Shown: positions 2,535 through 27,669 of the stretch, piece by piece
How the letters are laid out: every line of letters begins with the position of its first letter
Position numbering within the stretch: position 1 is the stretch's first letter
DNA from: Blasia pusilla
Taxonomy: Eukaryota
Assembly: GCA_050084515.1 (NCBI GenBank)
Contig: CM114271.1
Coordinates: 44,702,001-44,766,000, forward strand
DNA length: 64,000 nt
Reading direction: 5' to 3'
Notes under the pieces: model-generated
Told to the model about the DNA's origin: nothing
What the model saw: the letters and a program-made list of their open reading frames with translations, nothing else
Databases searched by the model: none
Translations under genes and position numbers: made by a program

Positions 2535-2643
2535 TGTGGTACACTTGCGTTTGTGGATACTCTCGTCTATGTTATGTACGTATGTGAGTATGGTATGTCA
2601 GCGATGTATGTTGTATGACGATGTGGATTCGCACGACATCGTT
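2535..2643 (+). repeat. First ~105 bp of a second copy of the same LTR (left half of a split LTR)
   Basis: TGTGGTACACTTGCGTTTGTGGATAC...GGATTCGCACGACA matches 2058-2158. Confidence 0.9.
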
Positions 2644-3700
2644 ATTGAAATGTAGTGGATTACTTGCCTTACGCGTTTATTCTAGGTGCGAACATTCAAG
2701 TCTGTTGAAACACCTTCTGGCTTGGCCTCATCACCTGTGACAAGCTCCCATAGTTCTTGACCCATGAGAAATTGTTTCATGCAAAACTTCCAAACATTGT
2801 AATTTTTCTTATCTAGCTTATCGCTTCTGATTGTTGTTGAGGAATACTCCATGGCGAACAATTTCACTCACAAAAATGTAATTTTAAGCTCTCTACTCTC
2901 CAATTGAAGCATAGATCACTCCTACACATAAATCGACATGAAATTTGCCAAAATTGATCACATGTATGAAAGAACTAGTCGAAATTGGCTTGTAGAGAGC
3001 AAACTCCATAACTTTTCTTTACTAATTGTACTTTCTTACACTGAAAATGCTACTGTATGAGCTCAGAATGTCAAAATCGAGCGATTTTGGATGAATTGGA
3101 AAGCTCTTGATGAGCTCTACAAGACATCAATAATAACATTTTGGCATCATTCACGTCATTGCGGATCCAGATGGCTAAAATCGACCGAGAAAGCCTTCAT
3201 AAATGCCTCCAAAGTTTTATCACCGTCAAAGCTCCACCTGAAATTTGTACCCACTGAGCTCTGAACAAAATTTCTTTCTCCCAAATTGAAATTGTGCCTT
3301 CTCTTGCCTCTCTTCTCTCCTCAAATACCAAGAATTTCAAGTGATGTTCTTCTATCGTTTTGATACCATGTGGAAAACTGCTAAAGAAGCATAACTGGTG
3401 GGAAACGGCTCTCATACTCACATACCACCATGGTAAGCAAAATTTGCAATGAGAGAATGAGTGGAGGCTGACCCTCTTCATAATTATATAGGGTATGTAC
3501 AAGAAACCCTAACCCTAACCCTAACCTTAACCATAGTCTCGAATTAGACTAACTGTGATTAACTAACCCTAGTTAAGATAATCGCGCTTAACTGACTAAC
3601 CAAGATTAAGCTTCCCTACTTTGTGTGAGTACCAAATATAGCACTTCAGGTGTCTCATGAGCTTGACTGTAACTCAATCTTCAATATTTTCTATGCAAGT
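2644..3700 (-). mobile_element. 5' half of a degenerate Ty1/Copia element: LTR remnant, PBS, leader and gag N-terminus
   Basis: ORF 2682-2867 has the Copia gag motif KLDKKNYNVWKFCMKQFLMGQELWELVTG. On the minus strand ...CCACA|TGGTATCA at 3361-3370 is an LTR end plus tRNA-iMet-type PBS. The outer LTR boundary is approximate. Confidence 0.8.
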
Positions 3701-4823
3701 GCACATAATCTTCAAAATGGAATCCCCTAATTCTTGGATGATAACATCTTCTACGAATAGTCACATAACCGAATATATCTCTATCTTGGGAAATAGCTAA
3801 GTTCTTAATTTTTTTGCGCTTTGCTCTAAAAAAATAAATTTACCCTCTAAGAACATGCTTGCGCCCAAACAACCTGATCATCAAGGTCCAACACCTCTAC
3901 CATATTATGTCAAATAGTTGTAGGTAAGTCTATCTCTCTTCCATAGAGCAGATGGTATGGTAAAAATTAAACAAAGAATGCATGTTGATTAAAGTGATAA
4001 TCCATAGCCAACCATGATAGTTGTTTGTCCCACTCCCTTAAATATCCCTAATGCAAGCCATACTTGTATAACTCTCTCTTCACCAACCGTACCACTCTTT
4101 CCACTAGTCCATCCACCTCAACATAATCCCTAGACATGTTGCAGTGATTTATCAACGCTGATCATACAAGGTGTGAAACTTCCCTTTGAACTCGATACAA
4201 GGTGAACCATTTCCTTGCTCACCTTGGCTTGATCATATACTATACATCCGGCTAAAATTATTTTAACCTCAATATGAATGTGATGCCACTTATATTAAAC
4301 CTAGAGTAAGCTAGAAGTAAGCTTTACTCTAAAATGCCCCACCTCCTCATACGCATGTTGCACAACACTTGCTCATTGGGAAGGATGAGGCACTATCTGT
4401 ACTCTATCATCCTCTCGTACTGGTAACATGGCTTGGACAATTTTCGGACAATCAGCATCACGAACAACAGGGAAGGACTTGACAAAAATCTCCACCAAGA
4501 ATAATAATCTTTCCACCAAATGGAACCTCTCTTAAGTGATCCAACACTAATCCCAAAATATCTTGCAATGTACCGTTACTTCCCGTGGTTGCTCTATTTT
4601 TGTGTTTCCGCCCTGACCATCCTTAGGGCACTTAGTGGTGTAAGGTCCTTGCGCACTTTATGCCTACGGCTTACGGATGCCGTTCTCATCCGAATATCTT
4701 ACTTTGTGGGGAGAAAGCAGCGCCATTCTTTTTGAACGAAACCCGGTTTTCGAAGGGCTCGAGATGCAAAGCTTTAGACGAATGGCCCAAAGAAGACGAG
4801 ATACTTTGAGAGTCCGTGACAGC

Positions 4824-25369: not shown

Positions 25370-26415
25370 AGAGTGTGACTTGGTCCATCAGGGACGTTGG
25401 GTTTGTCCCAAATGTATATAAGTATGATAGGTAGATTACAAGATGACTCTTGATGTTATGGATTATAGGAAGGTGACTAACGATGGGGTGACATAGTACC
25501 CAACTTCTTGATCTTAACATAGAAAAGATGCATGGCATTCAGACCTATTTTGTAGGCTATCTAGAGTTAGAGGACCTAACCACCAACTAGGGGGATGATT
25601 GGTGTTTTCCAATCGTTCATGTGTAGATATGTTAGGATTCATAGTTAGATGGATCTTAGACTTGTGTGCATGACAAGTGATGTATATTGGCAGCGATGTC
25701 TATTTGTACGACTGTTATGGTAGATAAGACGTAGGGCAAGATATTATCGAGGCCCTAGAGGGATCTTGTACTTCCCTATTTTGAGAAGTTATATGTGATC
25801 TACGAGTTTAGGTTACTCTTCCTTTATGAGGAGTAGAAACCTTGAAGAGGTTGACCCTCCCATCCTTTAAGTGGAGCCACTTAGGCCTTTAGGGTGGAGG
25901 ATTAGTTGATAGTTGGTCTTATGAGGGGACCATATGTGTAGTGGTTATGGAGTTAGTATATTGTGTCCTCAAGGTTTTTAGTGACGTGCTAGGAGGAGGT
26001 TACATGTGTGTACATGTCCTCTATGGGGGTGCCTAGGGGGGTATACCTCAGGATGAAGCTCATTCAAAGCTCATCTTCCTTGAACCATGTTGGGGTCTGT
26101 GATACAATATAACTTGCATGTATTGAACCTAGATTATCTCTTAAAGAGTGAGCTAGGATTGATCATAGATCACACACATTGAGAGTATATTGTAGACTTT
26201 CTCCTATTGTTATTGTAGTGTGTATCATTGAATGGATGTTTGGATAAAGCATGGCTAATTGCAAATTTCATCAGATTTCACATTTGATATCAACTTTATA
26301 TTGGGGTTGTGCAGTCGTTCATTTGCAGATATGTTAGGATTCATAATTAGATGGATCTTAGACTTGTGTGCATGAGAACCGATGTATGTTGGCAACGATG
26401 TCTATTTGCACGACA
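25370..26415 (+). mobile_element. Remnant of a second, related PHD-type Gypsy element: pol end, 3' UTR, PPT, LTR-like sequence and a partial LTR repeat
   Basis: GRWVCPKCI* at 25392-25421 matches GRWVCPRCT* at 1855-1884. 25440-25595 is homologous to 1890-2056 (GACTAACGATGGGG, GAGTTAGAGG(G)ACCTAAC, TAGGGGG). 25612-25712 is repeated at 26314-26414. Confidence 0.7.
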
Positions 26416-27319
26416 GACTAGTCTCGTGGCGTCTTACCCATCTTGACAATCCACATGTTCCTTGCTGCTCATCCTCAACTCCAAGGTCTCAAACCTTGCT
26501 TGCCTTACATTTTTTCCCGTAAGTAGCTATGCCCCTTTCTCACCTAAGGCCAATCATAAGACACGTGTGCATCTTGCCTGACATCAGTCTCGCGACTTGT
26601 TCCGCCGCCCTTCCTAATCTCACAACCAGCTAGTCTAGGTTTCGACTTTGGTAGATCCCACCAAGGTCTTTCCTCCTTGATCATGACTTGCTTCACAAGT
26701 TCTCGCCAGTGTGGGTGCCATAAACATAGCTATTTGCGACCCTTTTACACGTCTAAAGGGTGAACCTTATGCGATATCTTATATATGCAATAATTAGCAA
26801 AGGAAAAAATGTGGGAGATAGAATCTTTATTCCACAGATTCCATTGATTGCATTTCATTTTGGTTTATCTTTTCGTCAACGAAAATTTGAATTTCCTATC
26901 CATCATGCTTTTGAAACGACGACAAATAGGTTTTAAAGTCAAACATTAGAGAGAGTCGACACATACATATCAAATCTTATATTTTCTCATAAATATTATA
27001 TGTTACCTTATCTAGTGTAGGTTCAAGGAATTCCATTTATGTAGAATTCATGGAACCTACTCTAGACATAAGTATATGTAGAAATATAATTTTATAGATG
27101 TTAATTTTTATTATCTATTATCATTTATATTATAATCAATAATAAAAATACTACGAGTAGAATATATTTTTACACTAAAAATATTTCATATCATGAAATA
27201 TTAAAATGAATAAATAATAGATGAAAAATTATGGAAAATTAAATTTCTGTGAATTAAATTTTTTATGATATTTTATCAATTAAAAATATTTTTATGAAAT
27301 GTATGTTAAATCATACATT

Positions 27320-27669
27320 TCATAAAACACGTTTACAATCACATACAATCGAGCCAAACCCACTCCACGATGGGAGAATCCAGGTCGAAGCTTGCGGGAA
27401 ACACCATAGCCAAGAGCTCTACTCACTACCACGGCTAACTCCCAACGCAACAGGCTCAACTCAAAGAACTGACTGTTCTTTGAGTGCACTCCACCTTATA
27501 TCCTCCAACCTAAGAGCGGGCCCTATTGGGAAACTCACCCCCAACTGAGTAACCCCCAATCCTATGTATGGAACCGCATCTCTACCAAGCCACTACGGTC
27601 CTACATAAGGAATGTCCTCTACTAGCACACTATACTCTACGACATAATCCGTATGGTCATGACAACGAT
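27320..27669 (-). repeat. Last ~345 bp of the Gypsy LTR (right half of the split LTR)
   Basis: Reverse complement of ~2165-2509. The same spurious ORF 'MHSKNSQFFELSLL...' appears at 2340 (+) and 27489 (-). Confidence 0.93.

Follow-up and report, generated by a model that had tools for sequence, protein, structure and literature searches.

Inversions Formed by Breakage and Joining

The closest described counterparts of the rearrangement treated here, an inverted interval of about 25 kb in nuclear DNA of the plant Blasia pusilla, are the inversions which arose in Drosophila by end joining. The window referred to below is the whole stretch of DNA that was analysed, 64 kb of contig CM114271.1, and all coordinates are positions in it. 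At one end of the interval lies one half each of two retrotransposons, a Ty3/Gypsy-type element broken in a long terminal repeat (LTR) and a Copia element broken in its gag reading frame, and at the other end lie the complementary halves. It is probable that this represents a real, derived inversion which was made by breakage and end joining and not by recombination between repeats.

End-joining inversions of the "cut-and-paste" or staggered-break type have been described in Drosophila (Ranz et al. 2007, PMC1885836; PMC7584159, both as far as their excerpts go). As characterised in the excerpted part of the respective report, the O7 inversion of Drosophila subobscura is a multi-break inversion in which a micro-inversion of 2,026 bp adjoins the main breakpoint and stretches of 58 and 534 nt are duplicated in inverted orientation (PMC7584159). 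Like the Drosophila cases, within the compass of these excerpts, the locus examined here has no long inverted repeats at its breakpoints and carries a short parental sequence inverted at both ends. The micro-inversion directly beside the main breakpoint of O7 has a counterpart in a flip of 977 bp, whereas the duplicated sequence amounts to 2 to 6 bp here as compared to the 58 and 534 nt given in the excerpt for O7 (PMC7584159). The Drosophila cases differ also in that the host is a plant here, the interval spans only 25 kb, and all breaks are located in dead retrotransposons.

For plants, the excerpted portion of a Brassica napus pangenome study names LTR elements of the Copia and Gypsy type as the families found most often where inversions have their breakpoints, and counts nonhomologous end joining as well as end joining mediated by microhomology (MMEJ) among the mechanisms of structural variation (PMC12599057). 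The excerpted part of a further review (PMC13516404) contributes nothing on the joints of inversions. With MMEJ rearrangements the locus shares the presence of short common bases at the joints, 1 bp at one and 3 bp at the other, or 6 bp if the original prediction is followed. It differs from these in that neither joint shows a deletion and a hexamer is kept at both, and the other copies of the LTR do not support this hexamer as native to it. Inversions by nonallelic homologous recombination (NAHR) resemble the locus in having transposable elements at both breakpoints, but the elements broken here are unrelated, one in a Gypsy LTR and the other in a Copia gag, and have no homology beyond the hexamer. 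Transposase-driven inversions, for example by alternative transposition, likewise leave a short inverted duplication at the two ends; here, in contrast, there is no transposon end at the joints, and the Helitron is located at least 1.8 kb inside the interval. The anatomy as a whole fits the known kind of end-joining inversion, possibly one with multiple breaks.

Two Retrotransposons Split at the Same Two Joints

The halves of the LTR and of gag were each compared separately with intact references. As reference for the split LTR (LTR2) an intact copy in the window (LTR1, 2058-2532 on the plus strand) was used. Intact copies of both transposon families were obtained from Logan contigs of four public runs, X2 to X5, which derive from three samples and two studies and were placed on positions 26900-29600. 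Contig pieces are the 32 listed, next to 51,795 further pieces, and counts of loose contig ends refer to the rows listed, beyond which there are 934 further ones. In run X5 differences of the types C>T (57 places) and G>A (65 places) are strongly over-represented; the library of this run looks bisulfite-converted, and its letters were read accordingly. The features at the two ends of the interval are:

1-2044, plus strand: Ty3/Gypsy-type element, decayed internal region ending in LTR1, with RNase H, integrase zinc domain and C-terminal PHD finger
2058-2532, plus strand: LTR1, intact copy, starting with TG after a purine-rich tract
2535-2638, plus strand: 5' part of LTR2, beginning 2 nt past LTR1; LTR homology stops at 2638
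2638-2643, no strand: left main joint (J1L), hexamer ATCGTT, read from the sequence
2638-2852, minus strand: Copia gag codons 1 to about 75 with one TAG, from open reading frame (ORF) and Pfam
2853-3368, minus strand: Copia 5' untranslated leader, read by eye
from 3369, minus strand: start of the Copia 5' LTR, read by eye
27320-27666, minus strand: 3' part of LTR2, in which 23 nt or more are missing from the end of the LTR
27664-27669, no strand: right main joint (J1R), hexamer AACGAT, read from the sequence, Copia contigs matching from exactly 27664
27664-28088, plus strand: Copia gag codons about 74-216 with one frameshift and several stops, from ORF, Pfam and tblastn

On the left the gag frame runs from 2852 to 2640 on the minus strand and comprises 71 codons, from the initial M to QVIHYISIT, with one TAG. 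On the right a plus-strand frame starting at 27665 reads TISSPMIGHIQD and continues, after a one-base frameshift in a run of A, to about 28088. Pfam assigns DUF4219 and positions 1-36 of Retrotran_gag_2 to the left piece and positions 76-165 of Retrotran_gag_2 to the right one. A full HMMER search with the right piece (116 residues) against 1.84 billion representatives yielded 1612 proteins at E ≤ 1e-3, 69 at ≤ 1e-10 and one at ≤ 1e-30. The closest relative found, P0004 (246 amino acids, 61% identity, E 2e-35), reads ...QVIHYISITIQASMIGHIQD across the break, or ...NKRARQVIHYISITIQASMIGHIQD in a longer stretch, and the two gag halves, QVIHYISIT and TISSPMIGHIQD, join at one common threonine codon of this protein without loss or gain. 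From HY to GH the distance is equal in all four relatives checked by eye (P0004, P0010, P0012 and P0020). With tblastn, residues 7-78 of P0004 were placed on 2846-2631 and residues 61-221 on 27601-28086.

The family contigs give the same picture at the level of DNA. Copia contigs which match the window from exactly 27664 carry upstream of this position 30 letters corresponding to the reverse complement of 2644-2673 at 29 of 30 positions. Contigs crossing the break were seen in three of the four runs and in both studies (12 in X2, 37 in X3 and 12 in X4, with no X5 row among those listed), which means that intact Copia copies run from the left gag piece straight into the right one. The location of the gag halves on opposite strands, as claimed in the original prediction made from the sequence, thus agrees with the Pfam positions, with P0004 and with the family contigs. 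Further towards the 5' end of the element, a tRNA-Met-like sequence at 3357-3368 read by eye is presumably the primer binding site, and a short telomere-like run of the CCCTAA type at 3500-3530 is probably inside the Copia 5' LTR.

The owner of the split LTR shows the Ty3/Gypsy order, with RNase H ahead of integrase and both upstream of the LTR: Pfam found RT_RNaseH at 23-406, then Integrase_H2C2 at 410-1024, and then follows LTR1. The polyprotein frame closes with the PHD finger at 1777-1881 on the plus strand (Pfam E 6e-10), just before the purine-rich tract and LTR1. LTR2 aligned to LTR1 in two blocks, 2532-2638 (plus strand) to 2055-2158 and 27662-27320 (minus strand) to 2165-2509, with self-BLAST identities of 95.3% over 107 columns on the left and 98.6% over 345 columns on the right. 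The blocks adjoin on LTR1, where 6 nt (2159-2164) lie between them. Family contigs of run X2 (n = 3, agreement 0.77) depart from the window behind 27666, and their next letters agree with the reverse complement of 2609-2638 at 29 of 30 positions. LTR2 appears to have been split between 2638 and 27666 without loss, provided that it was of the family type. The segment 27320-27669 on the minus strand had been regarded as the remainder of the LTR; part of this remainder is indeed present there, but it lacks at least 23 nt which LTR1 and the family copies carry.

LTR1 and LTR2 stand head to tail, the first ending at 2532 and the second starting at 2535, 2 nt apart. The continuations of the family contigs diverge after ..GGATTTCA, which leaves LTR2 as either nested in the end of LTR1 or part of a tandem LTR-LTR joint. 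A target-site duplication of LTR2 was not found.

Reversal of the interval would restore both elements, as had been predicted, with the LTR halves adjoining on LTR1 and the gag halves on P0004. The anatomy of the joints and the contiguity of the intact family copies are observed directly. Since a transposon inserts in one piece, the split arrangement found here is derived, so that the copies of the two transposon families support a derived present order which can be read without an outgroup. The alignments likewise support a putative reciprocal origin of the two joints, from a single break in the LTR and a single one in gag codons 74-76.

Further Joints beside the Inversion

Additional joints were found to the right of the main inversion and at the outer end of LTR2:

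28086-28088, no strand: J2, where the gag-side and integrase-side homologies overlap by TAG
28086-29065, minus strand: Copia zinc knuckle, protease region and integrase core, flipped as compared to intact copies, from Pfam, tblastn and contigs
29065/29066, no strand: J3, from contig joins
27290-27305 and 27312-27327, no strand: J0, perfect 16-nt palindrome with a 6-nt loop, the right arm including the last 8 nt of the LTR2 fragment

To the right of the interval the plus-strand Copia does not extend over a whole element. It stops at 28088, and 977 bp of the same element (28089-29065), located 425 bp right of the main joint, are also flipped. The domains detected on the minus strand are the zinc knuckle, Pol_BBD (about 28715-28617), gag_pre-integrs and rve (about 28335-28168), the latter reaching profile position 102 of 102, and residues 396-581 of P0062 were placed by tblastn on 28619-28072 of the minus strand. 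The Copia order of gag, protease and integrase is found in the domains (DUF4219, Retrotran_gag_2/3, Pol_BBD, gag_pre-integrs and rve) and in the coordinates of P0062. In all four runs contigs join 28088 to 29061, 29065 or 29067 on opposite strands (two in X2, one in X3, three in X5 and three in X4), from which it follows that intact copies run from gag into the far end of the minus-strand block.

Seven X2 contigs extend the integrase past 28086 (..NMPKMYWAK, translated from loose letters); when this continuation was sought across the window, no match with three or fewer mismatches was obtained. No RVT_2 domain of a reverse transcriptase occurs in the 194 ORFs of at least 75 amino acids within the window, and in self-BLAST of the window the Copia 5' region had no counterpart elsewhere, hence no 3' LTR. 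The Copia is a truncated remnant in which the integrase C-terminus, the reverse transcriptase and the 3' LTR are gone. For the flip of 977 bp the Copia must have been broken at 28088/29065 as well as at the integrase site, and its remainder must have been lost.

A further cut truncates LTR2 at 27320. The family contigs continue past this position with the last 23 nt of LTR1 (2510-2532), and loose ends before it are present in three X2, 22 X3 and six X4 contigs among the rows listed. A search across the window for the missing 23-nt end gave a single occurrence, which was LTR1's own. The palindrome at this place resembles what snap-back synthesis at a broken end might leave behind.

One clean event, as originally proposed, is not what the surroundings of the inversion suggest, as the second flip, the lost Copia remainder and the cut LTR2 end were found beside it. 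It is conceivable, and can be put forward tentatively, that all the joints (2638, 27664, 28088, 29065, that of the lost Copia remainder and perhaps 27320) go back to one local shattering event. At least five double-strand breaks would then have occurred, four of them within 1.75 kb of the dead Copia and LTR patch with their partner 25 kb off. The fragments would have been randomly religated, two of them flipped, one kept, and one or two lost, and the product would have been inherited through the germline.

Origin of the Inversion

The hexamer ATCGTT at the left joint and its inverted copy AACGAT at the right joint were found at the positions originally given. From the comparison with P0004 and from the family contigs this hexamer is native to Copia. 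In the other copies of the LTR that were seen, three letters (GTT, GCA or ATT) stand between GCACGACA and GT..CATGACC, and all of these copies are without TC. The LTR copies in three X2 contigs read GCACGACA-GTT-GTCATGACC, those in eight X5 contigs have GCA in the GTT position, and LTR1 has ATT there together with a 2-nt insertion of its own. Four of the six bases are common to the hexamer and the LTR ends, A at the left joint and AAC/GTT at the right joint. With an LTR2 of the family type, the presence of the Copia-native hexamer inverted at both joints amounts to a net gain of 2 bp (TC). The actual microhomology would then probably be 1 + 3 bp, with the 2 bp duplicated from Copia.

In terms of end joining, one double-strand break would have occurred in the Gypsy-type LTR2, at a site whose two sides are now at 2638 and 27666, and a second one in codons 74-76 of the Copia gag. 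The intervening piece, which carries the 5' end of the Copia, the decayed Helitron and the deacetylase gene, would have been religated in reversed orientation. The net gain and the common bases are what would be expected of a Copia break which was staggered by 2 nt, had both its ends filled in and was then joined to a bluntly cut LTR, with 1 and 3 bp common to the partners. The inversion may have been part of a cluster of breaks in which also the 977-bp segment was flipped, the remainder of the Copia was lost, and the outer end of LTR2 was cut beside the palindrome. What we infer from this anatomy is how the DNA broke, by which pathway it was repaired, and whether one event or several took place.

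A number of points weigh against this reconstruction. The evidence on the native state of LTR2 is thin and consists of the three X2 contigs with their agreement of 0.77, the eight X5 contigs with converted letters, and LTR1, all mutually differing. There is an appreciable though minor chance that LTR2 had a private TC, which would give a full microhomology of 6 bp. The extra joints might stem from unrelated events which preceded or followed the inversion. Among the 32 contig pieces listed none bridges any of the joints. Of 24 public runs none holds half or more of 16 sampled left-joint words, the best fraction being 0.38, in a soil metagenome and one other run, which is uninformative on the joint and on habitat, and exact scans of metagenome contigs with a 28-mer of the left joint and a 27-mer of the right joint gave no match for either.

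The rival which survives best, although it is unlikely, takes ATCGTT as native to both LTR2 and Copia and explains the inversion by a conservative exchange within this 6-bp inverted microhomology, without any base change. The full hexamer is present at both joints, and when it is counted once, the split LTR has the length of LTR1, with 6 nt between GCACGACA and TCATGACC in both. Sharing of six bases is rare by chance: among 400,000 random breakpoint pairs sampled within the window six or more common bases were obtained in 0.179% (rounded, 0.18%), as compared to 1.8% for four or more. The LTR family is also prone to insertions and deletions at the break, as seen from the 2-nt insertion in LTR1. 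The TC, however, was present in none of the other LTR copies seen (three X2 contigs, eight X5 contigs and LTR1), and LTR1 differs from the hexamer reading at five of the six intervening positions, though the copies are 98.6% alike elsewhere. In addition, when microhomology-mediated end joining follows resection, sequence is normally lost and the homology is not kept at both reciprocal joints. Of the microhomology-mediated inversion between non-homologous transposable elements that had been predicted, the inversion and the lack of relationship between the elements hold, whereas 6 bp native to both are doubtful in view of the TC-free LTR copies. Long homology between the two breakpoints was absent, as a repeat search and a self-BLAST of the window gave no match between the LTR and the Copia. 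A snap-back origin of the TCGT at the left joint, from arms at 2615-2624 and 2636-2645 which are 90% complementary, is possible but unnecessary, because Copia supplies those bases.

An artefact of assembly or scaffolding is very unlikely. The interval would then truly have the other orientation, or the joints would stem from a read chimera, and the lack of bridging contigs among the pieces listed as well as the density of high-copy repeats in the region, with summed contig depths of up to 2e5, are in line with this, as is the crowding of five unusual joints within 1.75 kb with one more 25 kb away. Against it stands that the joints are reciprocal to the base without a duplicated segment. Chimeric reads yield one-sided or duplicated junctions, not balanced pairs. 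The joints also connect non-homologous sequences and are located outside the 321-nt inverted LTR pair, which is where a mis-orientation would be expected, and the unique flanks 27010-27285 and 29233-29419 are present with no differences in an independent run.

Template switching during replication, by fork stalling or microhomology-mediated break-induced replication with homologies of 1-3 bp in one pass, is hardly to be credited. Every piece is present once, with no duplication beyond 2-6 bp, while replicative mechanisms usually leave copy-number gains, and the break at 28088/29065 is used cleanly by two joints, as would be the case for a free fragment. Such a mechanism would nevertheless account for several changes of orientation within 1.75 kb, for the short common bases at the joints (A at J1L, AAC at J1R and TAG at J2) and for the snap-back palindrome at 27290-27327.

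Nested insertion is ruled out as there is no LTR end at any joint, a chimeric cDNA made by template switching of reverse transcriptase leaves the reciprocal product 25 kb away unexplained, and an inversion mediated by a Helitron or a transposase is ruled out by the lack of a transposon terminus at the joints. The only long inverted pair, 2189-2509 and 27320-27640 (321 nt, 99%, 24.8 kb apart), stops short of the joints; these run from LTR to gag while the arms of the inverted pair reach no further than 2509 and 27640, which does not fit an inversion by NAHR. This inverted LTR pair is a product of the inversion and not its cause.

Content of the Interval and Neighbouring Genes

Inside the interval and in its right flank the following features were found:

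4450-7313, minus strand: Rep/helicase frame of a decayed Helitron, Helitron_like_N (E 2e-31) covering about 6870-7313 and PIF1 about 4450-5240
17694-19284, plus strand: three exons of a gene for a class II (HDAC6-like) histone deacetylase, Hist_deacetyl profile positions 101-296
29066-31038, plus strand: right flank, low-copy as judged by contig depth, GC-rich at first and then with a single-exon ORF
30085-31038, plus strand: intact single-exon ORF of 318 codons, resembling DUF677/ROH1-like plant proteins (protein atlas, high score, a lead only)
32113-32340, plus strand: CcmH, from Pfam
36567-39755, minus strand: adaptin gene, from Pfam
49423-52972, minus strand: NB-ARC/LRR gene of the disease-resistance type, from Pfam

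The Hist_deacetyl, Helitron_like_N and PIF1 domains bear out the histone deacetylase gene and the Helitron expected in the interval, and the predicted CCMH/AP3D flank corresponds to the CcmH and the adaptin gene found to its right. For the deacetylase, putatively HDA14 in the original prediction, the best relatives with a solved structure are HDAC6 chains (E 2e-47). In the right flank contig depth from 29084 onwards is 0 in three of the four runs and at most 5.2 in X3, of which one contig covers 29233-29419 with no differences, and a continuation of the Copia is absent from 29066-31038. The ORF at 30085-31038 has no Pfam match at E ≤ 0.001, and the joint of the micro-inversion is located about 1 kb upstream of it. 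Elsewhere in the window tandem duplications are found at 21617-22320, 8890-9121, 46991-47608 and 59030-59433, with periods of about 351, 114, 309 and 200 bp, respectively, and identities of 83-93%.

Implications

From plant pangenomes good documentation already exists of small inversions which were made by end joining and have transposons at their ends, and the general picture is unchanged by the present locus. What it offers is a clean worked example, in which both cuts are in transposons with intact relatives and the joints are legible to the base without an outgroup. The footprint of the repair consists of about 2 bp gained and 1-3 bp of common bases, with no deletion. The adjacent flip and the lost sequence suggest a clustering of breakpoints, as in the Drosophila O7 inversion in the form given by the excerpt of that report. 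If a single shattering event were true, the locus would be a small natural chromothripsis-like rearrangement of a plant, readable base by base from the copies of the transposon families.

As to the chromosome itself, no gene is cut by any of the joints, and the deacetylase gene has been reversed in relation to its neighbours. A tandem pair of LTRs has been turned into an inverted one, which could in principle drive later flips by homologous recombination, and in heterozygotes the inversion would locally suppress crossing over.

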